Shown: piece by piece, positions 1,558-57,082 of the stretch
How the letters are laid out: each line of letters begins with the position of its first letter
Position numbering within the stretch: the stretch's first letter is position 1
Source of the DNA: Eubacteriales bacterium
Lineage (GTDB): Bacteria; Bacillota; Clostridia; Oscillospirales; CAG-272
NCBI GenBank assembly: GCA_045587025.1
Contig: JAZNBK010000053.1
Span: forward strand, 19,136-83,135
Length of the DNA: 64,000 nucleotides
Direction of reading: 5' to 3'
The notes under the pieces: model-generated
Seen by the model: the letters and a program-made list of their open reading frames with translations, nothing else
Told to the model about the DNA's origin: nothing
Databases searched by the model: none
Position numbers and translations under genes: made by a program

Positions 1558-4188
1558 ATGAGCAAAAAGTATGTTTATCTCTTCACCGAGGGCAACGGTT
1601 CTATGCGTGAGCTTCTCGGCGGTAAAGGCGCTAACCTTGCCGAAATGACCAACCTTGGTCTTCCTGTACCTCAGGGCTTCACAATTTCTACCGAAGCTTG
1701 TACACAGTACTATGAGGACGGACAAAAAATTAACGCTGATATTCAGGCGGAAATCATGGAAAATATCGAGAAGATGGAGCAGATTACCGGCAAAAAGTTC
1801 GGCGACCTTGAAAATCCCCTTCTCGTTTCCGTTCGTTCCGGCGCACGCGCTTCTATGCCCGGTATGATGGATACAATTCTTAACCTCGGCTTGAACGAGG
1901 ACGTCGTTGAGGTTATAGCGAAAAAGTCGGGCAATCCCAGATGGGCTTACGACTGCTACAGAAGATTTATTCAGATGTACTCCGACGTAGTTATGGAAGT
2001 AGGTAAAAAGTATTTCGAAGAGCTTATCGACGAAATGAAGGCGAAAAAGGGCGTTACTCAGGACGTTGATCTTTCGGCTGACGACCTCAAGGAGCTTGCT
2101 AATCAGTTCAAAGCAGAATACAAGAACAAGATCGGCTCTGACTTCCCCTCCGACCCCAAGGAACAGCTTCTTGGCGCAGTTAAAGCAGTATTCCGTTCTT
2201 GGGACAACCCCAGAGCTAACGTATACCGCCGCGACAACGATATCCCCTATAGCTGGGGTACGGCAGTAAACGTACAGGCAATGGCATTCGGTAACATGGG
2301 CGATAACTGCGGTACAGGCGTTGCCTTTACCCGTGATCCCTCTACCGGTGAGAAGAAGCTCATGGGCGAATTCCTTACCAATGCGCAGGGCGAGGACGTT
2401 GTTGCAGGCGTTCGTACTCCTATGCCTATCGCAGAAATGGCTAACAAATTCCCCGCTGCCTTCGAACAGTTCAAGAAGGTTTGCGAAATTCTCGAAAATC
2501 ACTATCATGATATGCAGGATATGGAGTTCACCGTTGAAAACGAAAAGCTCTATATGCTCCAGACCAGAAACGGTAAGAGAACTGCTCCCGCAGCTCTCCA
2601 GATCGCAGTTGACCTCGTAGCAGAGGGACACAAGACCAAGGAAGAGGCCGTTCTTATGATCGACCCCAGAAACCTTGACACTCTCCTTCACCCCCAATTT
2701 GACGCAAAGGCACTCAAAGCCGCTACTCCTATGGGACGCGGTCTTGGCGCATCTCCCGGAGCTGCTTGCGGTCAGGTAGTATTCTCCGCAGAGGATGCTG
2801 AAAAGTGGAAGGAAGCAGGCAAGAAGGTTGTTCTTGTTCGTCTCGAAACCTCTCCCGAGGACATTACGGGTATGAAGGCATCTCAGGGTATCCTCACCGT
2901 TCGTGGCGGTATGACCTCTCATGCAGCAGTTGTTGCAAGAGGTATGGGTAAGTGCTGCGTTTCCGGATGCGGCGAAATCGCTATGGACGAGGAGAACAAA
3001 AAGTTCACTCTCGCAGGTAAAACCTTCCACGAGGGCGACTACATCTCTATCGATGGCTCTACCGGTAACATTTACGACGGTATCATTCCTACCGTTGACG
3101 CAGAAATTTCCGGAAACTTCGGCACAATCATGGGTTGGGCTGATGAGTTCCGTACTCTTAAGGTAAGAACAAACGCTGATACTCCCGCAGACGCTAAGAG
3201 AGCTCGTGTGCTCGGCGCAGAGGGTATCGGTCTTTGCCGTACCGAGCATATGTTCTTTGAAGCTGACAGAATTGCCGCTTTCAGAGAAATGATTTGCGCA
3301 GATACTGCTGAAGCAAGAGAAATAGCTCTTGAAAAGATTCTTCCCTATCAGCAGTCCGACTTTGAAGGAATCTACGAGGCGCTCGAGGGCACACCCGTAT
3401 GTATAAGATTCCTTGATCCTCCGCTTCACGAATTCGTTCCTCAGACCGAGGAGGACATTGCTCTTCTCGCTAAGGCGCAGGGCAAGACCGTTGAGGACAT
3501 CAAGGCAATCATCGCTTCTCTGCATGAATTCAACCCCATGATGGGACACAGAGGATGCCGTCTTGCAGTTACCTATCCTGAAATTGCGAAGATGCAGACC
3601 AAGGCAGTTATTCGCGCTGCTATAAACGTTCAGAAGAAGCACCCCGAATGGACTATGGTTCCTGAAATTATGATTCCTCTCGTAGGCGACGTTAAGGAGC
3701 TTAAGTTCGTTAAGAACGTAGTTGTCGCTACCGCAGACGCTGAAATCGCAGCTGCAGGCGTATCCCTCAAGTACGAGGTTGGTACGATGATCGAGATTCC
3801 TCGTGCATGCCTTACCGCAGATGAAATCGCAGCAAACGCTGACTTCTTCTGCTTCGGTACTAACGACCTTACCCAGATGACTTACGGCTTCTCCCGTGAT
3901 GACGCAGGTAAGTTCCTCGGCGCTTACTACGACGCTAAGATTTTTGAAAACGATCCCTTCGCAAAGCTCGACCAGACCGGTGTCGGCAAGCTTATGAATA
4001 TGGCGGTTGCCCTCGGCAGACCCGTAAATAAGAACCTCCACGTAGGTATTTGCGGTGAGCACGGCGGCGATCCCACGTCGGTAGAATTCTGCCATGAAAT
4101 TGGTCTTGACTACGTTTCCTGCTCGCCCTTCCGTGTTCCGATCGCAAGACTTGCGGCAGCACAGGCAGCTATTAAGGAATCCAAGTAA
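1558..4188 (+). CDS. ppdK: pyruvate, phosphate dikinase
   Basis: 876-aa ORF with a GGAGG RBS upstream. N-terminal GGKGANLAEM ATP-grasp motif. Phosphohistidine swivel motif GGMTSHAAVVARGMGK. C-terminal PEP-utilising TIM-barrel (CRTEHMFF, FFCFGTNDLTQ). Confidence 0.97.
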   Translation: MSKKYVYLFTEGNGSMRELLGGKGANLAEMTNLGLPVPQGFTISTEACTQYYEDGQKINADIQAEIMENIEKMEQITGKKFGDLENPLLVSVRSGARASMPGMMDTILNLGLNEDVVEVIAKKSGNPRWAYDCYRRFIQMYSDVVMEVGKKYFEELIDEMKAKKGVTQDVDLSADDLKELANQFKAEYKNKIGSDFPSDPKEQLLGAVKAVFRSWDNPRANVYRRDNDIPYSWGTAVNVQAMAFGNMGDNCGTGVAFTRDPSTGEKKLMGEFLTNAQGEDVVAGVRTPMPIAEMANKFPAAFEQFKKVCEILENHYHDMQDMEFTVENEKLYMLQTRNGKRTAPAALQIAVDLVAEGHKTKEEAVLMIDPRNLDTLLHPQFDAKALKAATPMGRGLGASPGAACGQVVFSAEDAEKWKEAGKKVVLVRLETSPEDITGMKASQGILTVRGGMTSHAAVVARGMGKCCVSGCGEIAMDEENKKFTLAGKTFHEGDYISIDGSTGNIYDGIIPTVDAEISGNFGTIMGWADEFRTLKVRTNADTPADAKRARVLGAEGIGLCRTEHMFFEADRIAAFREMICADTAEAREIALEKILPYQQSDFEGIYEALEGTPVCIRFLDPPLHEFVPQTEEDIALLAKAQGKTVEDIKAIIASLHEFNPMMGHRGCRLAVTYPEIAKMQTKAVIRAAINVQKKHPEWTMVPEIMIPLVGDVKELKFVKNVVVATADAEIAAAGVSLKYEVGTMIEIPRACLTADEIAANADFFCFGTNDLTQMTYGFSRDDAGKFLGAYYDAKIFENDPFAKLDQTGVGKLMNMAVALGRPVNKNLHVGICGEHGGDPTSVEFCHEIGLDYVSCSPFRVPIARLAAAQAAIKESK

Positions 4189-4764: not shown

Positions 4765-5277
4765 ATGAGAAAATTCAGAAAATATAAACCTTTCTTTACA
4801 AATCTTTTAGTATTTCTTGTTTTGCTTGCTGCTTTGTTTTTCTTTCTAAACAAGGAATTCAGGTCTAATATTCCAAGCTGGGAAAACAATCTTTCGCTCG
4901 AAGAGCTGATAAAGCTACATAAATATACTCTGCCGAAAGCGCCCGAGGGCTACGTGAGTATAGGTACGTTTAAGCTCACCGCATATTGCCCCTGTGAAAA
5001 GTGCTGTGGCGTATGGGCTGAAGGGCGTCCGACCGATGAAAACGGAGAAATCGTAATTACCGCATCGGGAGAAAGAGCCGAGCAGGGATTAACCGTAGCG
5101 GCTGATATCGACCTTTTGCCCTTCGGCACCTCGCTTTTGATAGACGGCAAGGAGTATATAGTGCAGGACAGAGGCGGCGCAATCAAGAAAAAACGCCTGG
5201 ACGTCTATTTTGAGGACCACGAGCAAGCCCGTAACTTTGGCGTTCAATATAGAGAGGTCTATATAAAGATTGAATAA
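4765..5277 (+). CDS. 3D domain-containing protein (cell-wall associated, RlpA/MltA-like barrel)
   Basis: The track ORF starts at 4717, but ATG 4765 follows an AAAGGTGG RBS. N-terminal TM/signal anchor. C-terminal 3D-type region FKLTAYCPCEKCCG...TVAADIDLLPFGT...VQDRGGAIKKKRLDVYF. Confidence 0.75.
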   Translation: MRKFRKYKPFFTNLLVFLVLLAALFFFLNKEFRSNIPSWENNLSLEELIKLHKYTLPKAPEGYVSIGTFKLTAYCPCEKCCGVWAEGRPTDENGEIVITASGERAEQGLTVAADIDLLPFGTSLLIDGKEYIVQDRGGAIKKKRLDVYFEDHEQARNFGVQYREVYIKIE

Positions 5278-5282
5278 TAACG

Positions 5283-5323
5283 AAAAAAGCAACGGAAGTC
5301 AAATGAAAATCCGTTGCTTTTTA
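5283..5323. terminator. bidirectional intrinsic terminator
   Basis: A-tract, then 10-bp stem AAGCAACGGA / TCCGTTGCTT, then T-tract. It lies between convergent genes (3D protein on +, ABC exporter on -). Confidence 0.8.
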
Positions 5324-5334
5324 TATTTAAAGGT

Positions 5335-7242
5335 TTATTCAAGCTCAAACGCGCCCGTATAAAGACGGTAATAGGTTCCCTTTTCGCTTATCAGCTTCTC
5401 GTGGTTACCGCGCTCGATAATTTTTCCGTGGTCAAGAACCATAATGACGTCGGAATTTTTTACGGTGGAAAGGCGGTGAGCGATAACGAATACTGTGCGT
5501 CCCTCCATGAGCTTATCCATACCTCGCTGAACTATCGCTTCGGTACGGGTATCTATCGACGAGGTCGCCTCGTCGAGTATCATAACGGGGGGATCGGCTA
5601 CCGCCGCTCTCGCAATAGCGATAAGCTGTCTTTGTCCTTGAGAGAGATTAGAGCCGTTATTTGTAAGCTCGGTATTATATCCGTTCGGCAATCTCGTGAT
5701 AAAATCGTCCGCGCCCGCAAGCTTTGCGGCAGCGATACATTCCTCGTCGGTCGCCTCAAGATTTCCGTAGCGAATATTCTCCATTACGGTTCCCGTAAAG
5801 AGATTCGTATCCTGTAGCACTATTCCGAGAGAACGGCGCAAATCCGATTTCTTTATTTTGTTTATATTTATTCCGTCGTAACGGATTTTTCCGTCGGCAA
5901 TATCGTAGAAGCGATTTATGAGGTTGGTTATCGTGGTTTTTCCCGCGCCCGTCGCGCCAACGAAAGCGACCTTCTGTCCCGGCTCGGCATAGACCGAAAC
6001 GCCGAAAAGAACCGGCTTACCCTCCTCGTAGGAGAAATCGACCTCGTTCAACCTTACGTCGCCTCGCAAGAGCGTGTAGGTGAGACTTCCGTCCTTGTGC
6101 GGATGCTTCCATGCCCAAACGCCTGTGCGCTCGTTTGTTTCGATAATAGAGCCATCCTCGCCGAGCTTCGCGTTTACAAGAGTTACGTATCCGTCGTCCG
6201 CCTCCGGCTTTTCATCCATTAACGAGAACAGTCGCTCGCCACCTGCCAAGCCCATTACGATAGCATTTATCTGCTGCGAGAGCTGATTTATATTTCCTGT
6301 AAACTGTTTAGTCATATTCAGGAAAGGAACGAGCACGCTAACGTCAAAAATCATTCCTGAAATGCTGAAATTCTTCACGCCCGAAACGACGAACAAGCCG
6401 CCTACTATGGCAATCAGCACGTACAAAATATTACCTATATTCATTATGATAGGTCCAAGGGTATTGGCGAAGGCGTGCGCCCTATAGCTATCCTCAAACA
6501 AGGTGTTATTTATTTCATCAAATTCGTCTATGCTTCTCTCTTCATGGCAAAAAACCTTGATGACCTTCTGTCCGTTCATGCTTTCCTGAACGAAGCCCTC
6601 TGTTCGTCCTATCGCCTTTTGCTGACGGATAAAATATTTTGCCGAGCCGCCACCTATTTTCTTGGAAACGAACATCATCGCAATTACGCCGACTAGCAGA
6701 ACCAAGGTCAGCCATACGCTGAAATAAAGCATAATTACGAAAACGCAAAGAACTATCGAAACCGACTGCAAAAGAGCCGGCAAGGACTGCGAAACAAGCT
6801 CACGCAATGCGTCGATATCATTCGTGTAACGGCTCATAATGTCGCCGTGCTTATTGGTATCAAAATATTTAATCGGCAGATTCTGCATTCCGTCAAACAT
6901 AGTGCGACGAAGCTTACTCAAAAAGCCCTGCGTAATATGCGCCATAAGCAACGCCTGCGCAGTTATTGCAATCAGGGAAAGTAAATACAGCGAAGCGAGA
7001 AGAATTATTTTAGGCAATATCTCCTCATACGCCATAACCCAGTTTCGTGTTTCTGCCCACTTATCAATTACGGCAATTACCTTCTGCAAAAACAAGGCGG
7101 GAACTGCCGAGGTAACTGCGGAAAAAAGTATGCAAAATATTGTAACAGGCACTAAGACAGGATAATAATGAAAAAGCAATTTCAAAATTCTGCCGAGTGC
7201 ATTTGCGTTAAATTTTCTTTTCGGCGGTGCGTTTTTATTCAT
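5335..7242 (-). CDS. ABC exporter permease/ATPase, consensus-site half of a heterodimer
   Basis: 635 aa. ATG 7242 follows an AAGGAGAG RBS. N-terminal 6-TM exporter domain. Walker A GATGAGKTT, Walker B VMILDEATS (catalytic E present), deviant signature LSQGQRQ. Overlaps the upstream partner by 8 nt. Confidence 0.9.
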   Translation of the reverse strand: MNKNAPPKRKFNANALGRILKLLFHYYPVLVPVTIFCILFSAVTSAVPALFLQKVIAVIDKWAETRNWVMAYEEILPKIILLASLYLLSLIAITAQALLMAHITQGFLSKLRRTMFDGMQNLPIKYFDTNKHGDIMSRYTNDIDALRELVSQSLPALLQSVSIVLCVFVIMLYFSVWLTLVLLVGVIAMMFVSKKIGGGSAKYFIRQQKAIGRTEGFVQESMNGQKVIKVFCHEERSIDEFDEINNTLFEDSYRAHAFANTLGPIIMNIGNILYVLIAIVGGLFVVSGVKNFSISGMIFDVSVLVPFLNMTKQFTGNINQLSQQINAIVMGLAGGERLFSLMDEKPEADDGYVTLVNAKLGEDGSIIETNERTGVWAWKHPHKDGSLTYTLLRGDVRLNEVDFSYEEGKPVLFGVSVYAEPGQKVAFVGATGAGKTTITNLINRFYDIADGKIRYDGININKIKKSDLRRSLGIVLQDTNLFTGTVMENIRYGNLEATDEECIAAAKLAGADDFITRLPNGYNTELTNNGSNLSQGQRQLIAIARAAVADPPVMILDEATSSIDTRTEAIVQRGMDKLMEGRTVFVIAHRLSTVKNSDVIMVLDHGKIIERGNHEKLISEKGTYYRLYTGAFELE

Positions 7243-19026: not shown

Positions 19027-19063
19027 TTGACAAAGTAAAAATCCTCTGTTATAATAATGATAA
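19027..19063 (+). promoter_or_regulatory. sigma-A promoter with overlapping Fur/PerR-type box upstream of perR
   Basis: TTGACA (19027-19032), 17 nt, TATAAT (19050-19055). The 15-mer TTATAATAATGATAA (19049-19063) differs at one position from the 7-1-7 PerR/Fur consensus TTATAATnATTATAA. Confidence 0.65.
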
Positions 19064-20131: not shown

Positions 20132-20287
20132 ATGGATAAATACGTATGCCCCTGCGGATATGAATACGACCCCGCTCTTGGCGATCCCGATAACGGAGTT
20201 GCTCCCGGCACGGCGTGGGAGGATGTTCCTGAGGATTGGGTATGTCCTGTATGCGGTCTTGGCAAGGACGCCTTCGATAAGGCATAA
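20132..20287 (+). CDS. rubredoxin
   Basis: Not in the ORF track (51 aa). AAGGAG RBS, then ATG 20132. Translation [51 protein letters not shown], with the two CxxCG knuckles and the conserved W/DW pattern. Confidence 0.9.
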
Positions 20288-20405
20288 ATTAAAACGCCCC
20301 TTTGATTCGGATGCTTTACGTTTCGGATTAAACGGGGCGTTTCTATTGGAATAACCGACATTTATACGGTAAAAAAGGAGTTTCGCAGAAGCGAAACTCC
20401 TTTTT
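20286..20405. repeat. left copy of ~120-bp direct repeat (DR-L)
   Basis: Core 20294-20405 matches 22697-22807 apart from one C indel (CCCC vs CCC) and one substitution (A20318 vs G22720). It contains a long-loop hairpin (AAACGCCCC...GGGGCGTTT) plus a canonical terminator. Confidence 0.95.
20371..20405. terminator. bidirectional intrinsic terminator (in DR-L)
   Basis: AAAAAA, then 10-bp stem GGAGTTTCGC, loop AGAA, stem GCGAAACTCC, then TTTTT. Confidence 0.9.
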
Positions 20406-20424
20406 CCTATTTCCTTTGAAGTGA

Positions 20425-20453
20425 TTGATTTTTTGGAAATGCTGTGATATAAT
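20425..20453 (+). promoter_or_regulatory. cassette-internal sigma-A promoter with extended -10
   Basis: TTGATT (20425-20430), 17 nt, TGaTATAAT (TG at 20445-20446, TATAAT at 20448-20453). The -10 ends 36 nt upstream of the methyltransferase ATG. Confidence 0.6.
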
Positions 20454-20489
20454 GTTAATAAGTGTAACTATATTTAGGAGTAGATATAT

Positions 20490-21560
20490 ATGGAAGGAAC
20501 AAGAGATTTACAGACTGCAAAAAATGCTAAAAAAGATGAGTTTTATACTCAACTTGAAGATATAGAGTTAGAGTTAAAGCATTACAGAAAAGAGTTTAAG
20601 GACAAGGTTATTTTCTGCAACTGTGATGACCCTTTTGAAAGCAACTTTTTTAAATATTTTGCAATGAACTTTAATGCTTTTGGTTTAAAAAAGTTAATTG
20701 CTACTTGTTATGCTACTTCTCCAATAGCAAACGTTCAACTTTCTTTATTCGACATTATAGAACCCCATACAGAAGGAGATAACAAGAAACCATATAAAAT
20801 TGAGATTACAGAAGTTAAGGACTTAAACCAAGATGGAGCAATAGACCTTTTTGATGTTGAATATCTGCTCAAAAATGACAAAAATACTCTTTCCTTACTC
20901 AATGGAGATGGAGATTTTAGAAGTGAAGAGTGCATAGAACTTTTAAAGCAAGCAGATATTGTTATAACTAACCCTCCTTTTTCTTTGTTTAGAGAATATG
21001 TTGCTCAACTTGTAGAATATGATAAAAAGTTTATCATTATAGGAAATGTTAATGCCCTAACATATAAAGAAATATTTACACTGTTTAAAAACAATAAAAT
21101 GTGGTTGGGTTATAGCATACATAGTGGAGATAGAGAGTTTAGAGTGCCTGATGACTACCCTTTAAATGCATCAGGTTATAGAGTTGATAGTGAAGGAAAT
21201 AAATACATAAGAGTTAAAGGTGTTAGGTGGTATACAAATATTGACTATGAAGAAAGACATCAAGATTTAATATTGTATAAACCATATACAAAAGAAGAAT
21301 ACCCTAAATATGATAACTATGATGCTATAAATGTTGATAAAACAGTAGAAATACCTTGTGATTATGAAGGTGTTATGGGTGTTCCAATTACATTTATTGA
21401 TAAGTTTAACCCCGACCAATTTGAAATATTAGGTATGTCTGCATCAGCAGGTTATAATGCAGATATTGTAGGTATTCCATTTATGGGAGTAAAAGATGCA
21501 AGACCCTTGATAAATGGAAAAAATACTTATGCAAGAGTTTTTATTAAGAAAAAGAGGTAA
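20490..21560 (+). CDS. N6-adenine DNA methyltransferase, EcoRI-methylase family
   Basis: 356 aa with a GGAG RBS. N-terminal KKDEFYTQ motif and catalytic NPPF (ADIVITNPPFSLFREY), as I recall for the M.EcoRI-like family. Strongly AT-rich relative to its neighbours. Confidence 0.8.
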   Translation: MEGTRDLQTAKNAKKDEFYTQLEDIELELKHYRKEFKDKVIFCNCDDPFESNFFKYFAMNFNAFGLKKLIATCYATSPIANVQLSLFDIIEPHTEGDNKKPYKIEITEVKDLNQDGAIDLFDVEYLLKNDKNTLSLLNGDGDFRSEECIELLKQADIVITNPPFSLFREYVAQLVEYDKKFIIIGNVNALTYKEIFTLFKNNKMWLGYSIHSGDREFRVPDDYPLNASGYRVDSEGNKYIRVKGVRWYTNIDYEERHQDLILYKPYTKEEYPKYDNYDAINVDKTVEIPCDYEGVMGVPITFIDKFNPDQFEILGMSASAGYNADIVGIPFMGVKDARPLINGKNTYARVFIKKKR

Positions 21561-21564
21561 GTTT

Positions 21565-22674
21565 ATGGAAATAAAATTGACTGAAATATTAGTTAAAGAT
21601 TTAGTTGCTGGTTATGTTGACAGTGCAGAAAATGGAGTTGTTGCGTATGGGGGTAAACTCAATGTAAGACCTGCCTTTCAAAGAGAATTTGTTTACAGTG
21701 GTAAACAGAGAGATGCCGTCATAGAAACCATAAAAAAGGACTTCCCATTAAATGTAATGTATTGGGTTAAAAGTGAAAACGGTGGTTTTGAATTACTTGA
21801 TGGACAACAAAGAACCATAAGCATTTGTCAATATGTCAATGGAGAATATTCAATAGACCACAGAGCATTTGGAAACTTAACAAAAACAGAGCAGGACGAG
21901 ATTTTAGACTACAAGCTTATGGTTTATATTTGCGAAGGTAATGACAAAGAGAAATTAGATTGGTTTAAAATCATAAACATAGCGGGCGAAAAATTGACAG
22001 ACCAAGAGTTGAGAAATGCCATTTACACAGGAGAGTGGTTATCAAATGCAAAGGCATATTTCAGTAAAAATGGTTGCCCTGCTTATCAGGTAGCAAGTAA
22101 GTATATGAAAGGAACACCCATAAGGCAAGACTACCTTGAGACTGTCTTAAAATGGATTTCTGCAAGAGACAATATTGACTTGGAAGATTATATGGCAGAA
22201 CACCAGAACACAACAAATGCAAGTGAATTATGGTTGTATTTCAACAGTGTTATTACTTGGGTAAAAACTATATTCCCTAATTACAGAAAAGAAATGCAAG
22301 GCATTGAGTGGGGACTGCTCTATAACAAGTATGGTAATGACAAACTTGACCCCCAGAAACTTGAAAAAAGAATAGTTGAACTTATGCAAGATGATGACAT
22401 AACAAAGAGAAGTGGCATATATGAATACTTATTAAGTGGAGAAGAAAAACACCTTAATATAAGAACTTTCACAGACACAATGAAAAGAAAAGTTTATGAG
22501 AAACAAAAAGGTATATGCCCACATTGTGTAATGGAAAAGAAAGAAAAAACACATTGGGAGATTGAAGAAATGGAGGCAGACCATATTACTCCTTGGTGTG
22601 AAGGAGGAAAAACAGAAATTGAAAACTGTCAAATGCTCTGCAAAGAACACAACAGAAGAAAATCAAGCAACTAA
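21565..22674 (+). CDS. DUF262 (ParB-like NTPase) domain protein fused to a C-terminal HNH nuclease
   Basis: 369 aa from ATG 21565. The AGAGG RBS lies inside the MTase 3' end, with a 4-nt gap after the MTase TAA. DUF262 motifs RPAFQREFVY and LLDGQQRT. C-terminal HNH: CPHC...ADHITPW...ENCQMLCKEHNRRK. Confidence 0.8.
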   Translation: MEIKLTEILVKDLVAGYVDSAENGVVAYGGKLNVRPAFQREFVYSGKQRDAVIETIKKDFPLNVMYWVKSENGGFELLDGQQRTISICQYVNGEYSIDHRAFGNLTKTEQDEILDYKLMVYICEGNDKEKLDWFKIINIAGEKLTDQELRNAIYTGEWLSNAKAYFSKNGCPAYQVASKYMKGTPIRQDYLETVLKWISARDNIDLEDYMAEHQNTTNASELWLYFNSVITWVKTIFPNYRKEMQGIEWGLLYNKYGNDKLDPQKLEKRIVELMQDDDITKRSGIYEYLLSGEEKHLNIRTFTDTMKRKVYEKQKGICPHCVMEKKEKTHWEIEEMEADHITPWCEGGKTEIENCQMLCKEHNRRKSSN

Positions 22675-22685
22675 AAATCAAGCTG

Positions 22686-22807
22686 AAATTTAAATAACGC
22701 CCTTTGATTCGGATGCTTTGCGTTTCGGATTAAACGGGGCGTTTCTATTGGAATAACCGACATTTATACGGTAAAAAAGGAGTTTCGCAGAAGCGAAACT
22801 CCTTTTT
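22686..22807. repeat. right copy of ~120-bp direct repeat (DR-R)
   Basis: See DR-L. Begins about 12 nt after the DUF262-HNH stop and ends 14 nt before the MATE gene stop codon. Confidence 0.95.
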
Positions 22808-22808
22808 T
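22773..22808. terminator. bidirectional intrinsic terminator (in DR-R)
   Basis: Same GGAGTTTCGC-AGAA-GCGAAACTCC hairpin, flanked by A6 and T6. It serves the cassette on + and the MATE gene on -. Confidence 0.9.
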
Positions 22809-22821
22809 CTTTTTAATTTGC

Positions 22822-24210
22822 TTAATCGAGCTTTAAGTTACCGCCCTTAAATCCTATTTTATGGTAATAGATAAGATAAATCAAAGTACAGACAAGCCAA
22901 CCGGCAGGATACCCCATAGCGATATTCATAACGGTATTGCTTATATAGTTCGCCATAACGAACATATAGACCTGTCTGAAAAGGACGAAGCTGAAAAGCA
23001 TAATAACCATAGGCGCGCGACTGTTTCCCGAGCCGCGAAGCGCTCCCGCATAAACCTGATTTACGCAGCAAAGCGCGTAAAAGGGAGTGATGTAGCGCAA
23101 AAACATCGTTCCGTATTTTATGATTTCGGGGTTTTCGTTAAAGAACCTTACCATAAACGGAGCGAATGCCATTATCGGTATCATGACAACAATTGTTGTC
23201 AAGGTCGCTATGACGAGAGATATTCTGACACCCTTTTCGGCGCGAGCGGAATTCTTATTTCCAAGGTTCTGTCCTACAAAGGTAGTAGCCGCGAGAGAAA
23301 CCGCCTGCATAGGCATAAACATAAATTGGTCTATCTTCGTATAGGCGGTCCAACCACCCATAACGGTATCTCCGAAGAAATTTATGTAGGACTGAACGAA
23401 AACGTTAGAAAAAGCGGTAATCGAAAGCTGAATGGCGGCGGGTATTCCCACTATTACTATTTTCTTCAAAATTGAAGCGTCGAAATCCAAATAGGGAGAA
23501 GTCAGACGGATGCAGCCCTTATGAGACAACAGCGTTATGACAACCAGCACCGCCGAGCAGCCCTGCGCTATAACCGTAGCGTAGGCGACACCCTCAACGC
23601 CCATATTGAACACTAAAACGAAAAGAAGGTCGAGTGCGATGTTTATAAGCGCGGAGCAGGTAAGGAAGTAGAACGGCTTTTTTGAATCTCCGATAGCGCG
23701 CAAAATTCCCGCGCCCATATTGTAGACCATAAGCCCTATCATACCCGCAAAGTAAATAGTTAAATAACTCTTTGCCTCGAAAAATACGCTTTCGGGCGTA
23801 TTCATCATATTAAGCATATAAGGAACGGTAACTATGCCCAAAACGCTAAGGAGCACACCGCAAACGAGCGTGATGAGCGCAGACGTTCTCACCGCCTCGG
23901 ACACCTTGTCGTATCTCTTTGCGCCGTAGTATTGCGAAATTACTACACCTGCGCCGCTTGCAAGGCCTGTAAAAAATCCTATCAGCATATTGATAATAGG
24001 TCCGACGGTTCCAACGGCGGAAAAGGCCTGGTCGCTTACGTAGCGCCCTAAAACCCAGGTATCTACCGTATTATATAGCTGTTGAAAAACACTTCCCAAA
24101 AGCAACGGAAGTGAAAAAACGATTATATGCTTCCATATATTGCCGTCGGTCATATCGACATCTTCTTTTTGTCTTAGAAAAAATCTCTTAATAGTAGCTG
24201 TTATAGACAT
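22822..24210 (-). CDS. MATE family efflux transporter
   Basis: About 462 aa from ATG 24210 (GAAGG RBS). The track start at 24234 is TTG. 12-TM profile. N-terminal FSLPLLLGSVFQQLYNTVDTWVLGRYV is typical of MATE. Confidence 0.9.
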   Translation of the reverse strand: MSITATIKRFFLRQKEDVDMTDGNIWKHIIVFSLPLLLGSVFQQLYNTVDTWVLGRYVSDQAFSAVGTVGPIINMLIGFFTGLASGAGVVISQYYGAKRYDKVSEAVRTSALITLVCGVLLSVLGIVTVPYMLNMMNTPESVFFEAKSYLTIYFAGMIGLMVYNMGAGILRAIGDSKKPFYFLTCSALINIALDLLFVLVFNMGVEGVAYATVIAQGCSAVLVVITLLSHKGCIRLTSPYLDFDASILKKIVIVGIPAAIQLSITAFSNVFVQSYINFFGDTVMGGWTAYTKIDQFMFMPMQAVSLAATTFVGQNLGNKNSARAEKGVRISLVIATLTTIVVMIPIMAFAPFMVRFFNENPEIIKYGTMFLRYITPFYALCCVNQVYAGALRGSGNSRAPMVIMLFSFVLFRQVYMFVMANYISNTVMNIAMGYPAGWLVCTLIYLIYYHKIGFKGGNLKLD

Positions 24211-35652: not shown

Positions 35653-35728
35653 TGCGGCATCGCCAAGCGGTAAGGCACCAGACTCTGACTCTGGCATTAC
35701 CTAGGTTCGAATCCTAGTGCCGCAGCCA
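35653..35728 (+). tRNA. tRNA-Gln (anticodon CUG), CCA encoded
   Basis: Acceptor TGCGGCA/TGCCGCA (U1-A72, as in bacterial tRNA-Gln). Anticodon stem CCAGA/TCTGG with loop CTCTGAC. T arm CTAGG-TTCGAAT-CCTAG. By my parse the variable region is 6 nt. Confidence 0.85.
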
Positions 35729-35735
35729 ACGCAAA

Positions 35736-35760
35736 GGACACCTTCGGGTGTCCTTTTTTT
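35736..35760 (+). terminator. intrinsic terminator after tRNA-Gln
   Basis: Stem GGACACC, loop TTCG, stem GGTGTCC, then T7. The stem can extend outward into the tRNA 3' end (see findings). Confidence 0.85.
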
Positions 35761-35939
35761 GCGTTGGTTGCGGCACTTCGGCTTCGTACCTAGCCCTTTT
35801 CGCTTTGCGAAAAGGTTAGGTTCGCATTTCCCACCCGAAGATCGACAAGCTCGCTTGTCAGGCGCAGGGCGAGAAAATCCTCGCCATAGGCGAGACCCCT
35901 AGTGCAAAAACCCAAATCGATAAAATTTCTAAAAAGGCA

Positions 35940-35968
35940 TTTACAATTATTTGAAATTGTGATATACT
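35940..35968 (+). promoter_or_regulatory. sigma-A promoter with extended -10 driving the lipoprotein leader
   Basis: TTTACA (35940-35945), 17 nt, TGaTATACT (TATACT at 35963-35968). Confidence 0.6.
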
Positions 35969-35973
35969 AAATT

Positions 35974-36148
35974 CGCCAGACAGTCTTAATATCATAGTTA
36001 TAGGTTTTTCTCATTATAGAAAAGCTATAACTTTTTTCGCTATACAATTAGGCCAATTCGTTTTGGTAAAAACGCGACTCCTGCTTGATTGTATAGATAA
36101 CCTATGCTATGAAGAGATTGTTTGGCGACAATTGGAGTTTGCGTTTTT
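35974..36148 (+). ncRNA. candidate structured 5' leader (riboswitch-like, class unknown)
   Basis: Nested helices: P1 35974-35986/36115-36127 (13 bp, 2 G-U); P2 35993-36005/36100-36111 (12 bp, 1 G-U, 1 bulge); P3 36040-36048/36088-36096 (9 bp); hairpin 36014-36030. All non-Watson-Crick pairs are G-U only when read on the + strand. Confidence 0.4.
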
Positions 36149-36150
36149 CG

Positions 36151-36179
36151 GTGCGCTAACTTCGGTTGGCGCACTTTTT
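36151..36179 (+). terminator. leader (attenuator) terminator immediately upstream of the lipoprotein RBS
   Basis: 10-bp stem GTGCGCTAAC / GTTGGCGCAC (one G-U), UUCG tetraloop, T5. It ends 6 nt before the AGGAGG RBS (36186-36191) and 23 nt before ATG 36203. Confidence 0.7.
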
Positions 36180-36202
36180 AATTTTAGGAGGAATTATAAA
36201 AA

Positions 36203-37795
36203 ATGAGAAAAATTTTATCTTTCTGTCTTGCTCTGTTGTGTATTGCTTTTGTTTTTTGTATTTCTGGGTGCAATTCGTCCAGCACCTCTGATTACATAGA
36301 AGAAAAACCAATTACACCGTATTCAGCAAGCGAATGTATAGGAAAAACCTATTCAGATGTTGCTTCTGCTTTTTCAAAAACTGGATTTTTAAATGTTACT
36401 AAAGAATACGTTTATGACCTTGAGTTATATGAAACAGAAAAAGACTCTACGGTAAAATCTATATCAATAAACGGAATAACTGATTTTGCGGGAAATATGG
36501 AGTTTAACAAGCTTTCAAATGTAATTATAATATGCCATTCAATTAAAAAGATAAACGCTCCTACTTCTTCAAATGAAGCAAACGAGATAGATGCATCATT
36601 GCTTTTGGAAAAGTTTAAAAATGCGGGATTTACAAATGTATCAATAACAGAAAAACTTGACCTCGATCCAGACAAAACAGACAAACTTTTTGAAAATGAG
36701 ATTATAATAGGTGGTAAATCTTCGTTTAGCACTCAAGATCAATTTCAACACACCGAAGAAGTAAAAATCATTACACATAAGCCGTTTCAAAAGCACAAAG
36801 TGAAGGTAATAATTGATTTCGTTCCTAACCTCTTATTCAACAGATATAGCGTCGTTGTTGAACTTGGTGATAAAAAAATAAATTTGGGGCACGGTGAAGA
36901 TGCAGAATTTGAATGTTCATTAAAATCCGATTTTTACTATGTAAAAGTTTATAGCAAAACAGAACCATCTATAAAAGGCTCTTTGAAAATACAGGTTAAC
37001 GGCGAAACGGAAGCTGCATATAAAATAACCTGTTATTCAGAAGAAATTGACATAACAGAGCAATATATAATTAACAAAGGAGAAATAGGCGCTAACGAAG
37101 CCATTATACCCATTTCTTCGTCAAATTGTAAGTATAAAAATTATAGAGATATAGAACAACATTTCATTCAAGCAGGGTTTTCTAATATTTCAACCAAGAT
37201 TTTATATGATATATATTGGGGCTTGACGGCTGAAGGAGAAGTCGATAGCGTTTCAGTTGATGGTAATACAAAATTTGAAATGGGTGATATATTCAATAAA
37301 TCAGCGCCAATTGTAATCACCTATCATATGAAAGAAGAAGATGACCCATCTAGACCTGTTGTCACAGCACAACCAGCAGTAACGACAAAAGCTCCGAGCG
37401 AAACCACGCCCCAGCCTTTATACTATTCCACCAACACTAGAGAAAGTGCCAAAAACGGAAATACAGGTGTGTTCTCTTATAGAGATAGAGGTAGCTCTTA
37501 TGACATTTACTGGATAATTGACTTTGACGAAGGATATGTATATTATTTCACCGAAGGGAACGGCGAGTCATCTTGTGACAGAGTGAAAATTGTTTCTGGA
37601 ACCTTAAATGATGCTGTCACTATCACATATCACGACGGGGGGGATGTTTGGTCCTACAAATTGCATTTCAAATATGTTGGACATCCTGAAACTTTAATAA
37701 TGGTAGACCAAAACGGTTTTGATTGGAAATATTCAACAACCGATTTGGACAATGCTTTGGCTTTATTGGCAACAAAAAAGATAAAAGATTATTAA
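36203..37795 (+). CDS. hypothetical lipoprotein with three internal ~70-aa repeats
   Basis: 530 aa. Signal peptide with lipobox FCISGC. Three related modules containing (K/Q)(T/A)GF-x-N(V/I)(T/S) ... V-x-S(I/V)S(I/V)(N/D)G ... H. Pro/Thr linker PVVTAQPAVTTKAPSETTPQP. AT-rich. Confidence 0.7.
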   Translation: MRKILSFCLALLCIAFVFCISGCNSSSTSDYIEEKPITPYSASECIGKTYSDVASAFSKTGFLNVTKEYVYDLELYETEKDSTVKSISINGITDFAGNMEFNKLSNVIIICHSIKKINAPTSSNEANEIDASLLLEKFKNAGFTNVSITEKLDLDPDKTDKLFENEIIIGGKSSFSTQDQFQHTEEVKIITHKPFQKHKVKVIIDFVPNLLFNRYSVVVELGDKKINLGHGEDAEFECSLKSDFYYVKVYSKTEPSIKGSLKIQVNGETEAAYKITCYSEEIDITEQYIINKGEIGANEAIIPISSSNCKYKNYRDIEQHFIQAGFSNISTKILYDIYWGLTAEGEVDSVSVDGNTKFEMGDIFNKSAPIVITYHMKEEDDPSRPVVTAQPAVTTKAPSETTPQPLYYSTNTRESAKNGNTGVFSYRDRGSSYDIYWIIDFDEGYVYYFTEGNGESSCDRVKIVSGTLNDAVTITYHDGGDVWSYKLHFKYVGHPETLIMVDQNGFDWKYSTTDLDNALALLATKKIKDY

Positions 37796-46838: not shown

Positions 46839-47954
46839 ATGAAAAACATTTTCGACATCATCAATATCCCTTTTGGATATTTTATGCGTTTTTGCTATTC
46901 CATTACAGGGAATTATGCTATTGCGCTTTTGCTTTTCGCATTGGCAGTAAAAATTCTTTTCCTTCCCTTTGGAATCAAGCAACAGAAAAATCAAATTCAA
47001 AGTGCGAAGCTTCGCCCCAAAATGATGGCTATTGAGAAAAAGTACGCGGGACGAAACGACAAGGCAACCTTAAATAAAAAGCAACAGGAAATTATGGAAT
47101 TGCAGCAAAGAGAGGGCTATTCTCCGCTTGCCGGCTGTCTTCCTATGCTCATTCAGCTTCCCGTAATTTTGGCGCTCTACAATATCATTCGCAAGCCGTT
47201 AACCTATATCTGCCGCTTCTCGTCAGACCTTATAAAAACGCTTGCCGCAAAGGTAAACGAGCTCTCCCCTGAAGCAATCAAGGACGTTGCAAACGAAGAA
47301 ATCAAGCTTATTTCCAAGATGAAGGAGCTTGGCTTTTCAAATTTCGAAGCAATTGACGGTTTCAACGCAAATTTAATTCCTCACTTTGAAATGTTCCGCG
47401 GCTTCGACCTTGCGATTAACCCCACTATTACAAGTATTCTTGTAATCATTCCTATCTTGGTTTTTGCTACTCAGTTCTTCACAATGAAGCTGTCGCGAAA
47501 ATTAAATCCCATGGCGCAGATGACCACAGGCGCGGATGAGAACGTCAAGATGTCTAACGCTATTATGGACTTCTCTATGCCGCTTATGACCTTGTTTTTT
47601 GCATTCAATATGTCGGCAGCAATAGGTCTTTACTGGATTTATCAGTCGCTTATCAGTATGCTCCAGACGGTGCTTTTGGCTAAGTTTATGCCTCTTCCCG
47701 TTTATACCGAGGAGGATTTGCGTAAAGCCGAAAAGGAAATGAAGGTAAAGCCGCAGAAGTCCTCTGACAGACCTAAGGTCCGTTCGCTTCACCACATCGA
47801 CGACGATGACGACGACATTGCGTCTGCGCCCAAATCCCCTACGCAAGCTAAGTCAAAAAGCGGCAAGACCGCATCTATGATTGAAAAAGCTCCCGTCAAG
47901 GAAGACAAAAAGGACGACGAACAAAACGAAAATAACAACGTAGACGTTGAATAA
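46839..47954 (+). CDS. yidC: YidC/Oxa1 family membrane protein insertase
   Basis: 371 aa. Core 5-TM insertase (PLAGCLPMLIQLPVILALY) and a long charged C-terminal tail. Confidence 0.9.
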   Translation: MKNIFDIINIPFGYFMRFCYSITGNYAIALLLFALAVKILFLPFGIKQQKNQIQSAKLRPKMMAIEKKYAGRNDKATLNKKQQEIMELQQREGYSPLAGCLPMLIQLPVILALYNIIRKPLTYICRFSSDLIKTLAAKVNELSPEAIKDVANEEIKLISKMKELGFSNFEAIDGFNANLIPHFEMFRGFDLAINPTITSILVIIPILVFATQFFTMKLSRKLNPMAQMTTGADENVKMSNAIMDFSMPLMTLFFAFNMSAAIGLYWIYQSLISMLQTVLLAKFMPLPVYTEEDLRKAEKEMKVKPQKSSDRPKVRSLHHIDDDDDDIASAPKSPTQAKSKSGKTASMIEKAPVKEDKKDDEQNENNNVDVE

Positions 47955-47971
47955 AAATTGAGGATATAAAT

Positions 47972-48910
47972 ATGAGAAAAGAAATTATTGCATCAGGCAA
48001 AGACATTCAATCGGCTATCGACAATGCAAAGGAAGCGCTTGGAGTTAGCCCAATCGACGATATAGAATATGAAGTAATCGACTTGGGAAGCAAGGGTATA
48101 TTCGGAATTATAGGCGCAAAGCCCACGAAGGTCAAGGCGTATATCGAAATTCCCGACGCAAAGCCCGAGAGAAACCGCAGAAAAGATAACAGCGAAAAGA
48201 ACAATTCCAAAAACGACGGTAAAAATCAAAGGAATAATAAAAATCACAGAAACCATAACAGAAGAAACGACACCGTTTCCGACGAGCTTCTCGAAAAAAT
48301 CAAGAGCGAGCATAACGAAAAGGCGCCTTCGAAATCGGTGGCTATCCCAGAGGCAGAGCTTTCCTTTGAAAAGCTCGATATCGCCGAGGGCATTGATTTG
48401 TCCTACGACTTTGTAAACAAGCTCATTTCCAATTTGGGAATAGCTGCGACTGCAACGCTTTACGCTTGCAGTGACGGAACGAGAAGAATTACGATAGAGG
48501 GCGCGGACGCAAGCATCCTTATAGGTCATCACGGTGACACGTTGGACGCTTTGCAGTACCTTTCCAATCTCGCAAGCGCAAAGAAAAACAGCGAGGGCAC
48601 TAGGGACCACAGCAGAGTTACTATCGACATTGAGGGTTACCGTGCAAAAAGAGAGGAAACTCTGAGAGCTTTGGCTCGTAAAAAGGCAATGCAGGCGTTG
48701 AAAAACAACCGCAGCATAAAGCTCGAGCCGATGACACCCTATGAAAGAAGAATTATTCATTCCGAAATTCAGAGCATTGAGGGCGTTTCGACAAACTCGA
48801 TAGGTGCTGATAACAACAGACAGATAGTTATCTATCTCACCGACAAGGCGCAAAAAAACGCTTCTGTAAATAAGGAAGCTATCGAAAAGGATACAGAAGT
48901 CGATGAATAA
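47972..48910 (+). CDS. jag: Jag/KhpB-type RNA-binding protein (Jag_N, KH, R3H)
   Basis: 312 aa. Jag_N N-terminus (ASGKDIQSAIDNAKEALGV) and C-terminal R3H (PMTPYERRIIHSEIQ). An N/K/R-rich low-complexity linker lies between the domains. Confidence 0.85.
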   Translation: MRKEIIASGKDIQSAIDNAKEALGVSPIDDIEYEVIDLGSKGIFGIIGAKPTKVKAYIEIPDAKPERNRRKDNSEKNNSKNDGKNQRNNKNHRNHNRRNDTVSDELLEKIKSEHNEKAPSKSVAIPEAELSFEKLDIAEGIDLSYDFVNKLISNLGIAATATLYACSDGTRRITIEGADASILIGHHGDTLDALQYLSNLASAKKNSEGTRDHSRVTIDIEGYRAKREETLRALARKKAMQALKNNRSIKLEPMTPYERRIIHSEIQSIEGVSTNSIGADNNRQIVIYLTDKAQKNASVNKEAIEKDTEVDE

Positions 48911-50282
48911 TCCGACCTCAACAATAGCAGCAATCTCAACCCCGTCCGGCAAAGGCGGGGTTGCCCTTATAAGAACGTCAGGACAGGATGCTCTGAAAAT
49001 CGTTTCAAACTGCTTTATTCCCAGAAGTAAAAAGCCCCTCGCTGATTACCCCTCTCGCACCGCAATATACGGAGACGTAATTTTAGAGGGAGAAAAAATT
49101 GATGACGCCATTGCCGTAATCTTCCGCGCCCCCGCCTCTTACACCGGCGAGGACACCGTAGAAATTACCTGCCACGGCGGAACGCTTATCACAAAAACAG
49201 TGCTTGAAGCTATTCTTGCCTGTGGCGCAGTTCCCGCAACGGCGGGAGAATTTACAAAGCGCGCGTTTATGGCAGGAAAGCTAAGCTTGACCGACACCGA
49301 GGCAATTGCAACGTTATTGGAAGCGAAAACTCATTCTCAGATATTATTAAACTCTTCAAATGCAAGGGAAAAGCTAAACGATGAAATATCAAAGCTCCAC
49401 GACGAATTGATACTTCTTCTCTCCACCTTGTACGCAAAAATTGATTTTCCCGAGGAGGACCTTGCAGACCTCACGTCCGACGAGGTTCTCTCAAAATTGA
49501 ATGAGATATACAAAAGGGTAGAAAAGCTCTCTGCTACCTACAAAACGGGACACGCCGTAAACGAAGGAATACAAACCGTTATTTGCGGAAAGCCAAACGT
49601 AGGAAAAAGCACGCTCTACAACCTTCTCTGCCGAGGCGATTTTGCTATCGTCAGCGAATATGCGGGCACGACGAGAGACTTGCTCGAAAAAACGGTCTCA
49701 CTCGGCAAGGTGACGCTAAACCTCGTCGACACCGCAGGTATAAGGGAAACCGACGCTCCTGTTGAAAAGATAGGAATTTCGCTTTCAAGGAAGAAAATTG
49801 ATGAAAGCGAGCTTGTTTTTCTCGTATTTGACGGTTCGCTTCCGTTTGACAAGGAGGATTTTGAGCTTATAGAATACCTTTCTTCGTTAAGCGCTCCCAC
49901 TATTGCGATAGTAAACAAAGCAGACCTAAAGCAAGAGGCGGATATCTCGCTTTTAAAGAAAAAGTTTTCACATGTTATAACGATGAGCGCGAAAAACGGA
50001 GGAGCGGACGAGCTGTGCGATATAGTCAATAAGCTTTTCACCGACGATGAAATTTCGCTCGGTCACGACGCAGTCATATCAGGCGCAAGGCAGTACGCCT
50101 CTCTTATACGGACGAAGGGCTTCCTTTCCTCGTCTATCTCTGCATTAAAGGAAGGGCTTCCCTCAGATATCGTCTCGTCCGACATTGAATTGGCTGTTTC
50201 CGCTATTTCAGAGCTTGACGGAAGGGCGGTAAGCGAGGATATCGTTTCGGGCATTTTCAGTCATTTTTGCGTGGGAAAATAA
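48903..50282 (+). CDS. mnmE: tRNA modification GTPase
   Basis: 459 aa. G1 GKPNVGKST, G3 DTAG, NKAD, and the C-terminal FCVGK motif. Confidence 0.95.
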   Translation: MNNPTSTIAAISTPSGKGGVALIRTSGQDALKIVSNCFIPRSKKPLADYPSRTAIYGDVILEGEKIDDAIAVIFRAPASYTGEDTVEITCHGGTLITKTVLEAILACGAVPATAGEFTKRAFMAGKLSLTDTEAIATLLEAKTHSQILLNSSNAREKLNDEISKLHDELILLLSTLYAKIDFPEEDLADLTSDEVLSKLNEIYKRVEKLSATYKTGHAVNEGIQTVICGKPNVGKSTLYNLLCRGDFAIVSEYAGTTRDLLEKTVSLGKVTLNLVDTAGIRETDAPVEKIGISLSRKKIDESELVFLVFDGSLPFDKEDFELIEYLSSLSAPTIAIVNKADLKQEADISLLKKKFSHVITMSAKNGGADELCDIVNKLFTDDEISLGHDAVISGARQYASLIRTKGFLSSSISALKEGLPSDIVSSDIELAVSAISELDGRAVSEDIVSGIFSHFCVGK

Positions 50283-50287
50283 CAAAA

Positions 50288-50312
50288 AAATCCGACGTTC
50301 TGTCGGATTTTT
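50288..50312 (+). terminator. intrinsic terminator after mnmE
   Basis: Stem AAATCCGAC / GTCGGATTT with a 5-nt loop, followed by TT. Starts 6 nt after the mnmE stop. Confidence 0.8.
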
Positions 50313-50345
50313 AAGCCATATTCGTTTTGTAAACAAATATTTGCT

Positions 50346-50813
50346 TTACTTTCTTTTTTTAGGAACTGTCATATAGATAATGGCGATTACCGCTGCTGCG
50401 ATTACTATCGCAAGAACTACTCCCCAAACGGCAAATCTTGCGCCTTCCTCATCTGCAGCGCTCATAGTCGTTGTTTGATTAGTATTACTGGTCACGGGAG
50501 CGCTGGTGGTTGGGGCTTGAGTGCTCGTGCTCGGCTTATCTGTCGTGACCGTGTCATTTCCCAGCACGCCGTCAGGAGATAATATACCCCCGTCGTTCGA
50601 ATTATCTGTGACGTTCGGCGTCACCGGATCTTGATTTGAGGTTGTAATTTTCGGAAGAGTAATTTCGGGAGTATCGCCCTCAATTATTCCGTCCTTATCG
50701 GTAACTATACCGTCTCTTACAGACGGCATTGCATACGTCGGTATCTGCAAGCTAAACATCGCTACCGCCAAAAGCAACACCGCCAATATGACGCATTTTT
50801 TGTTTCGTTTCAT
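50346..50813 (-). CDS. hypothetical secreted protein with C-terminal membrane anchor
   Basis: 155 aa. N-terminal signal peptide (VILAVLLLAVAMFSLQIPTYA), Thr/Ser/Pro-rich middle, C-terminal TM helix plus a basic stop-transfer PKKRK. No LPXTG motif. Confidence 0.5.
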   Translation of the reverse strand: MKRNKKCVILAVLLLAVAMFSLQIPTYAMPSVRDGIVTDKDGIIEGDTPEITLPKITTSNQDPVTPNVTDNSNDGGILSPDGVLGNDTVTTDKPSTSTQAPTTSAPVTSNTNQTTTMSAADEEGARFAVWGVVLAIVIAAAVIAIIYMTVPKKRK

Positions 50814-50974
50814 TTTAGTTTTCCTTTAAGAATATTTTCTTAATATTAAAGCTTTGCTTTACAAATCTTTTATACTGCAGGTCATTCGGTTTTTGCTTTT
50901 GCTCGCTTGTATTTTGCCTGCAAATATATTATTTCACCTCAAAAAAACTTTAAACAGGATTTTATTTGGATATT

Positions 50975-51307: not shown

Positions 51308-51372
51308 TTGTAACTGTAAATAAAAGTTTCCCCCACCGACATTATCTGTTCGTCTGTGGGGGATTTTTGTTT

Positions 51373-57063: not shown

Positions 57064-57082
57064 ATTACACCTCTCGTCTTTT

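Follow-up and report, generated by a model that had tools for sequence, protein, structure and literature searches.

A two-gene restriction-modification cassette between long direct copies of a host spacer in an uncultured Clostridia lineage

How does a pair of AT-rich genes come to lie between two almost identical copies of an intergenic spacer, in a region where no recombinase gene is found? This question is raised by a locus of an Eubacteriales bacterium (Bacillota; Clostridia; Oscillospirales; CAG-272), in a stretch of 64,000 nucleotides (nt) of contig JAZNBK010000053.1 (assembly GCA_045587025.1) that we analysed as a whole and call the window. The cassette encodes an EcoRI-family DNA methyltransferase and a DUF262-HNH nuclease and is, on sequence criteria, a horizontally acquired two-gene Type II restriction-modification (R-M) system with its own promoter. 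We propose that insertion of this R-M cassette into the convergent spacer between a rubredoxin gene and a MATE transporter gene duplicated about 110-120 base pairs (bp) of the target, a reading to which we give a probability of roughly 0.6.

The two copies of the spacer are located as follows.
20288..20418, plus strand: left direct repeat (DR-L), a copy of the rubredoxin/MATE spacer; its core is 20298-20405 and its edges, 20288-20297 and 20406-20418, match weakly.
22691..22820, plus strand: right direct repeat (DR-R), the second spacer copy; its core is 22700-22807 and its end is 1-2 nt short of the MATE stop codon.

In pairwise alignment the two cores, which are in direct orientation, are identical at 107 out of 108 positions (blastn E = 5e-56), the sole mismatch being an A/G difference at 20319/22721, and the repeat starts are spaced by 2402 nt. 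With a one-C indel allowed, the match spans 20294-20405 versus 22697-22807; the C is absent from the 5' edge of the right copy. A first-pass annotation of this DNA had described long direct repeats with these same limits around the cassette, differing by one C indel and one A/G change, and all of this was reproduced. The repeat finder reports one long direct-repeat family, 20298-20418 versus 22700-22820 (121 nt, 96%). Similarity is weaker in the ~10-13 nt past each core end, and to the left it reaches about 20288/22691. An extension of the right repeat further left into a degenerate rubredoxin 3' end, where GCTGAAAT resembles GCATAAAT, was considered and rejected, as this stretch aligns with the 3' tails of other cassettes instead. 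Judged by the 107/108 identity, the two copies are young.

Which sequence was duplicated becomes clear from the two host genes at the outer sides of the repeats.
20132..20287, plus strand: rubredoxin gene, 51 amino acids (Pfam: PF00301, E = 4.8e-22); its G+C content (GC) of 0.545 is host-like.
22822..24210, minus strand: MATE efflux transporter gene, a convergent host gene (Pfam: PF01554, 8.4e-63); its stop codon is 22822-24.

The duplicated sequence is the spacer from the rubredoxin stop codon to 14 nt before the MATE stop codon, and the left repeat directly adjoins the rubredoxin stop codon (20285-20287). Each copy therefore represents almost the entire rubredoxin-to-MATE spacer, in line with the earlier proposal that the repeats are duplicated host sequence. 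The cassette had also been placed inside a bidirectional terminator, and this has to be corrected: nearly the whole spacer from the rubredoxin stop to the MATE stop, with both of its terminators, stands on each side of the cassette. The GC of DR-L (0.40) lies between that of the host genes (0.46) and that of the cassette (0.32).

Each repeat contains two hairpins.
20292..20342, plus strand: hairpin 1 of DR-L, a stem of ~20 bp with G.U pairs and one bulge, followed by TTTCTATT; a terminator scan detects part of it.
20372..20405, no strand assigned: hairpin 2 of DR-L, a bidirectional terminator of the form A5-GGAGTTTCGC-AGAA-GCGAAACTCC-T5.
22696..22743, plus strand: hairpin 1 of DR-R, with a 5' arm one C shorter than in DR-L; terminator after the nuclease gene.
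22773..22808, no strand assigned: hairpin 2 of DR-R, a bidirectional terminator with a 16-bp stem, for the cassette transcript on the plus strand and the MATE transcript on the minus strand.

Hairpin 2 has a perfect 15/16-bp stem, an AGAA loop and A and T runs at its sides (20372-20405; 22773-22808), so that the perfect bidirectional terminator annotated earlier in each repeat copy is present at both. Hairpin 1 had been read as a 9-bp stem with a 33-nt loop, but these are only the top 9 bp of the ~20-bp stem. The predicted RNA fold of 20285-20420 on the plus strand has -53.7 kcal/mol, and both copies fold far more stably than shuffled sequences (z = -7.3 for this one and z = -6.4 for the other). 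The stem of hairpin 1 is weaker on the minus strand. Because of the better fold on the plus strand and the TTTCTATT after the stem, hairpin 1 of DR-L is most likely the rho-independent terminator of rubredoxin. No RNA families were found in the repeats with Rfam. The ends of the high-identity part of the repeat (20298 and 20405) are at or near the feet of the two hairpins, with hairpin 1 starting at 20292 and hairpin 2 ending at 20405.

The interior between the repeat cores, about 2.28 kb in length (20406-22699), carries a promoter and two genes.
20425..20453, plus strand: cassette promoter, TTGATT (20425-20430), a 17-nt spacer and TG-n-TATAAT (20448-20453), an extended -10 promoter with 10/12 matches.
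20490..21560, plus strand: EcoRI-family N6-adenine DNA methyltransferase, 356 amino acids, with an NPPF motif (Pfam: PF13651, E = 2e-152, full length).
21565..22674, plus strand: DUF262 protein (GmrSD_N, DGQQR motif) with a C-terminal HNH nuclease, 369 amino acids (Pfam: PF03235, 9.5e-19; PF01844, 2.9e-07).

With a GC of 0.323 the interior is the lowest of any 2.3-kb stretch in the window. The 20 surrounding host genes have a GC of 0.464 +/- 0.031 and a third-position GC (GC3) of 0.50 +/- 0.04, compared to a GC3 of 0.20 in the methylase and 0.31 in the nuclease gene. These values support the view of the first-pass annotation that the insert is foreign and AT-rich. Its promoter, too, was confirmed at the position given above, and falls in the part of the cassette that is conserved with relatives, as the homology to loci L079 and L080 starts at 20424. 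Profile searches agree that the insert encodes only the methyltransferase and the DUF262-HNH protein.

The methylase also matches the PADLOC model MTase_II (1.3e-134). The nuclease gene begins 4 nt past the methylase stop codon on the same strand, and its product matches the PADLOC REase_II profile PDLC03418 (4.5e-136) with residues 1-368 aligned to positions 1-371 of the 372-position profile. Its sequence has both the catalytic DH...N...HN motif and DGQQR. A start at the first ATG of the open reading frame (ORF), at 21514, had been assumed for the nuclease; a start at 21565 is most likely and gives 369 amino acids, the length of the closest homologues among the matches listed (100% query coverage). 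PDB sequence searches with the methylase and the nuclease found no related structure for either. The DUF262-HNH protein is predicted to be the restriction endonuclease of the pair, and since a cognate-looking methylase is adjacent and the Type II restriction endonuclease profile is matched over its full length, it most likely cuts unmethylated rather than modified DNA.

The same pair is widespread elsewhere. The nuclease family comprises at least 8000 database clusters at E < 1e-30. The nuclease search recovered 86 other loci; 75 of them have an EcoRI-family methylase gene upstream in the same orientation, almost always as the immediate neighbour, and most of the remaining 11 contigs end too near the nuclease gene to show a methylase. 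This adjacency across loci reads as the signature of a cognate R-M pair, not of a solitary Type IV GmrSD-like enzyme. The nearest cassettes have 80% nucleotide identity to the window, and this homology covers 20424-22677 only, beginning at the -35 box and ending just beyond the nuclease stop codon. In alignments of the ends, similarity among cassettes stops at about 20415-20424 and at about 22690, which is where the repeats have their inner edges. The flanks of the closest copies are unrelated: in L078 the cassette is positioned between genes for a GGGtGRT protein and a YgjV-like protein, in L079 it has an rve transposase upstream and a rubredoxin downstream, and in L082 it is directly upstream of infC. 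Overall, the pair turned up at dozens of chromosomal sites that are unrelated to one another, and also on plasmids and a phage contig (plasmid and phage matches are labelled H1-H16). The flanks were usable in 37 contexts, and in 34 of these the module is AT-richer than the DNA around it (mean difference -0.086). The methylase/nuclease unit is thus mobile.

Plasmids with the module belong to Chryseobacterium, Macrococcoides (beside mef(F)/msr(G) resistance genes), Mammaliicoccus and Aeromonas; it is also carried by the 8.4-kb circular plasmid pRGI00069 and by the 49-kb human-faecal phage contig MT835503. The nuclease is 90% identical in amino acid sequence to its best relatives and the adjoining methylase 64-66% (window versus L078-L081), so that the module itself is mosaic; this suggests recombination inside the R-M pair, with possibly a methylase replacement or a change of specificity. 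The rubredoxin downstream of the module in L079 (3831-3986), one of the two closest cassette copies, is 84% identical in amino acids to that of the window. We examined whether this is meaningful, but its position differs and nothing else is common to the two sites, so it is probably a coincidence.

Pfam searches of ~57 ORFs, which cover all of the 64 kb, returned housekeeping or transport genes throughout, yidC, mnmE and mnmG among them, and detected no integrase, transposase or other recombinase. The repeat finder found no terminal inverted repeats at the cassette ends. There is no tRNA or tmRNA gene at the insertion site, the tRNA genes of the window being located only at 1235-1309 and 35653-35728, and there is no short target-site duplication, since the duplication is 108+ bp. 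The earlier statement that integrase, transposase, terminal inverted repeats and short target-site duplication are missing therefore holds and extends to all of these ORFs. Three candidate elements were rejected. An integrative element of the integrase type lacks a tyrosine or serine recombinase in the window and a tRNA- or tmRNA-derived attachment (att) site, and Rfam is blank in the repeats. A DNA transposon or insertion sequence does not agree with the missing transposase and inverted repeats at the cassette ends or with the 108+ bp duplication. An integron cassette or attC cluster does not fit the missing integrase, a hairpin that by eye has no R''/R' consensus, the cassette's own promoter and the presence of two sites only.

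A related explanation is site-specific integration by a recombinase provided in trans, with the repeats as attL and attR of an integrative or integron-like element. Integrated elements can indeed have direct repeats of tens to >100 bp at their ends, and the imperfect hairpins in the repeats superficially recall attC. We nevertheless consider this extremely improbable: besides the missing recombinase in 64 kb and the missing tRNA or tmRNA, the hairpin (by eye) does not have the attC consensus RYYYAAC ... GTTRRRY, the presence of a promoter in the cassette is atypical of integron cassettes, no flanking site is common to other copies of the module, and a motif shared with the hairpin arrays of a sister species (described below) is not significant.

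The copy number of the repeat bears on a different explanation. Two 39-mers from the core have exactly 2 matches each in the window at <=3 mismatches, compared to 0 in 100 shuffles, and blastn with 7-nt words detected no further copies in the window and in 77 loci of relatives. The repeat sequence was not found in collections of plasmid, phage and viral sequences, and a 29-mer from the core had no match in JGI metagenomes. The first-pass annotation had named a dispersed repeat as a possible objection; in the 64-kb window there are exactly two copies of the core and none more. The cassette could also have inserted by chance between spacer copies that already existed, as a tandem duplicate or a dispersed family. 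Insertion between pre-existing repeats is the third class of repeat-flanked R-M genes listed by Furuta 2010 (PMC2853133), and the sister-species flanks are tandem hairpin arrays which break assemblies, so such spacers can be intrinsically repetitive. Against this stand the two copies only in 64 kb with none in the relatives' loci, the position of each copy within a few nt of a cassette end, and the young age suggested by their identity, and we regard this origin as improbable.

In order to see if other copies of the module have long flanking repeats, 2 kb upstream was compared with 2 kb downstream in the 46 loci with both flanks, with mismatched flank pairs as a control (maximum 32 bits). Two cases alone stand clearly above this control, the window (197 bits) and a second group of loci. 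The second group consists of L108, L110-L113 and L117 of one human-gut species, in which the module is located between a Mrp-type ATPase gene and dnaG. In L111 the module lies between 280-bp direct repeats with 85.7% identity (2145-2418 and 5134-5406), each an array of tandem 51-57-nt hairpin units; the repeats start from the stop codon of the gene upstream. In L110, a contig of the same species, the hairpin array is found solely on the right of the module, and the module itself comes directly after the upstream stop codon. A long duplication is therefore recurrent, not obligatory, for this module, and single-spacer and repeat-flanked forms can coexist in one species. No empty site was found in the human-gut species, as all contigs with the upstream Mrp gene break inside the hairpin array, and the 90%-identical relative has a different downstream gene and no array.

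In L112, a 3006-bp contig with the module and arrays, the ends 11-77 and 2940-3006 overlap at 94% identity, which may mean that the assembly stopped at the flanking repeats, or may hint at a circular or tandem form. The sequence CGCCCCTT(T)GATT begins hairpin 1 in the window and every array unit in L108-L117 and was considered as a common target; it was rejected as chance because an alignment score as high is reached by dinucleotide shuffles in 35% of cases and by random segments of the window in 17%.

How could the duplication have arisen? We propose that incoming cassette DNA, carried by a plasmid or phage, would have been joined to two breaks on opposite strands about 110 nt apart, each at the outer foot of one of the two terminator hairpins. 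The interval would then be copied onto both sides by gap filling, and no element-encoded recombinase would be required. An alternative route, the one favoured by the first-pass annotation, is of the Campbell type, in which a circle with the cassette and one spacer copy, for example excised from a conspecific strain, would integrate by a single RecA crossover. The four junctions predicted by this model are those observed, and the staggered breaks with fill-in and the RecA crossover of a circle fit the junctions equally well. Moreover, the repeat is long enough for RecA and nearly identical, the module is present on small circular plasmids, and L110, with its array on the right only, beside the repeat-flanked L111 gives the two-step series that the model needs. 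On the other side, the spacer is absent from plasmids, phages, viral contigs and JGI metagenomes, so that the circle would have to come from the same species, and the model accounts for the spread of the cassette, not for its first linkage to the spacer. We see integration of such a circle as a possible but rather unlikely source of the duplication.

Identical junctions also raise the question of the assembly itself. In an assembly artefact or a mixed population, the chromosome would have one spacer, and the cassette with the other spacer would be a separate circle or present in a part of the population. The integrated form and an empty site plus circle give the same four junction sequences, the A/G difference is 22 nt from the left edge of the repeat and thus linked to the left junctions only, and the source is apparently a single 91-kb contig of an uncultured lineage. 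Yet the copies differ at their edges as true junctions should, and the repeat-flanked module was independently assembled in other samples (L108, L111). In addition, a repeat of 108 bp is, as a general rule, shorter than the largest common k-mers and read lengths, and ordinary assemblies would be expected to span it. We therefore judge an artefact to be very improbable.

A more specific reading would place the methylase/DUF262-HNH cassette in a group of recombinase-free mobile units which enter DNA at extruded terminator hairpins. The feet of the two hairpins would be nicked, possibly by the His-Me (HNH) nuclease of the cassette or by a host enzyme, and the ~110-nt stagger would be filled in. 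This idea is drawn from the core ends at or near the hairpin feet and from the second, independent copy of the R-M family that is bracketed by duplicated hairpin arrays. We hold it to be a long shot; if true, the long target duplication would gain a defined, structure-directed mechanism.

For insertion with duplication of the target, the resulting arrangement can be described as follows. The left copy would end the rubredoxin transcript and shield the cassette from read-through, the cassette promoter would drive the methylase and, behind it and tightly coupled, the nuclease gene, and the right copy would terminate both the cassette transcript and the convergent MATE transcript. After the duplication, every transcript (rubredoxin, cassette and MATE) would thus keep a terminator. 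Between the repeats, RecA could bring about deletion or tandem amplification of the cassette. From what is established for R-M systems, such a deletion would be opposed by post-segregational killing.

A comparison with relatives of the host locus was attempted in several ways. A database protein, P0001, is 100% identical to the MATE protein of the window over its 462 amino acids, and the next-best match is 77% identical. Exact-sequence look-ups of the rubrerythrin, rubredoxin, methylase and MATE protein P0001 found no record, and no conspecific sequence was found in the searchable collections for an empty site. The relatives L001-L003 keep the synteny lysS - hyp254 - MATE. In a scan with MATE, the best GTDB relatives are Oscillospiraceae/Eubacteriales metagenome-assembled genomes with 73-75% amino acid identity; they keep this gene order as far as MATE but lose synteny at its stop codon, and their similarity ends a few dozen nt from it, with unrelated genes beyond.

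Several points weigh against our preferred reading, in which cassette insertion duplicated the spacer. Its direction is inferred from the composition and the mobility of the cassette, not from a before/after comparison. About 44 of the 46 cassette copies with both flanks have no long flanking repeats, so duplication is not obligatory for how the module moves. The copy number of the repeat is known for 64 kb only, and a rare dispersed copy elsewhere is possible. Restriction activity and specificity of the DUF262-HNH protein are predictions. Furthermore, to our knowledge the staggered-break step has never been demonstrated experimentally for any R-M system.

The surroundings of the cassette are those of a chromosomal core region. 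On the left flank rubredoxin closes a block Fur - rubrerythrin - rubredoxin, and on the right flank the gene order is MATE - hypothetical - lysS - greA. A perfect consensus promoter (TTGACA, 17 nt, TG-n-TATAAT) is present at 19027-19055, upstream of the Fur-family gene which heads the block, and points to a strongly expressed oxidative-stress operon. The homologues of yidC, mnmE and mnmG at 46839-63007 indicate a region near the chromosomal replication origin, which would put the R-M cassette into an origin-proximal core region. A second stretch of low GC (about 0.34-0.37) is found at 35653-37795, directly after the tRNA-Gln gene (35653-35728). It contains a 530-amino-acid ORF (36203-37795) without Pfam or PADLOC match and may be another acquired gene; no direct repeat of the tRNA-Gln end flanking 35653-37795 was found. 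At 205-1122 on the minus strand a protein with helix-turn-helix (HTH) and Fic/DOC domains adjoins the tRNA-Arg gene (1235-1309) and matches the PADLOC candidate defence family PDC-S04 (E = 1.9e-106) as well as SoFic.

The phenomenon of long duplications around R-M genes has been known since 2000; what is new here is the host lineage and the uncharacterised DUF262-HNH restriction partner. The locus offers a clean and recent case (1 substitution in 108 bp) of an R-M pair as a minimal mobile element in gut Clostridia, and widens the known hosts of a phenomenon that was discovered in Helicobacter. Its sharp junctions, with both ends at hairpin feet, are raw material for elucidating the mechanism 25 years after the phenomenon was described. 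In addition, the locus is a candidate strain-variable marker of methylome and defence. The pairing of DUF262-HNH as restriction partner with an EcoRI-family methylase is very common in gut metagenomes, and no experimental study of it was found in the literature and solved structures that we checked.

Among known systems, the Type IV enzymes GmrSD and BrxU resemble the nuclease in the N-terminal DUF262 domain (GmrSD_N) with DGQQR and in the C-terminal His-Me/HNH domain (PMC12707154). The window protein differs in that it is much shorter (369 amino acids), has a PF01844 HNH instead of a DUF1524 domain at its C-terminus, is encoded beside a cognate-looking methylase and matches a Type II restriction endonuclease profile over the full length. 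IS1630 (1999), as far as it is described in PMC2853133, likewise duplicates its target upon insertion, a target that contains a hairpin or terminator and whose length is unusual and variable; it has a transposase and terminal inverted repeats, and the window cassette has neither. The amplifiable R-M units of Sadykov 2003 (Mol Microbiol), again as described in PMC2853133, share the R-M pair between long direct repeats as a substrate for tandem amplification. There the amplification was engineered or observed in the laboratory, whereas the window has a single integrated copy.

The closest likeness is to the class named "insertion of R-M systems with long target duplication" (Nobusato 2000, Gene; Furuta 2010, NAR, PMC2853133), of which Furuta 2010 lists examples for R-M Types I-IV. 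In the life cycle proposed for such R-M systems, insertion is followed by amplification via the repeats and by release, and amplification alone is experimentally supported (PMC2853133). The published cases are defined by comparison with an empty site. The published examples that we consulted come from Proteobacteria, cyanobacteria, Thermus and an actinobacterium, and the present one from uncultured Oscillospiraceae-like Clostridia; it differs also in that the nuclease is a DUF262+HNH protein and the duplicated segment is a complete pair of terminators which ends at the hairpin feet. The class is defined by R and M genes, an insert of <20 kb, direct repeats of >30 bp, no other mobile element and repeats that are unique in the genome (PMC2853133). 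Here, the insert contains homologues of both the R and the M gene (PADLOC REase_II, 4.5e-136; EcoRI_methylase, E = 2e-152), its size is ~2.28 kb, the repeat is 108 bp long and the ~57 ORFs of the window include no mobility genes, so that the locus agrees with the published class on every criterion that can be tested. As to uniqueness, the repeat has two copies in the 64 kb of the window and none in plasmids, phages, viral contigs or JGI metagenomes. The likeness extends further: R and M genes only, in an insert AT-richer than its host and without mobility genes, are enclosed by repeats of host spacer that start at, or close to, the 3' end of an adjacent gene and that, with 108-121 bp, lie within the published range of 46 to about 420 bp (PMC2853133).

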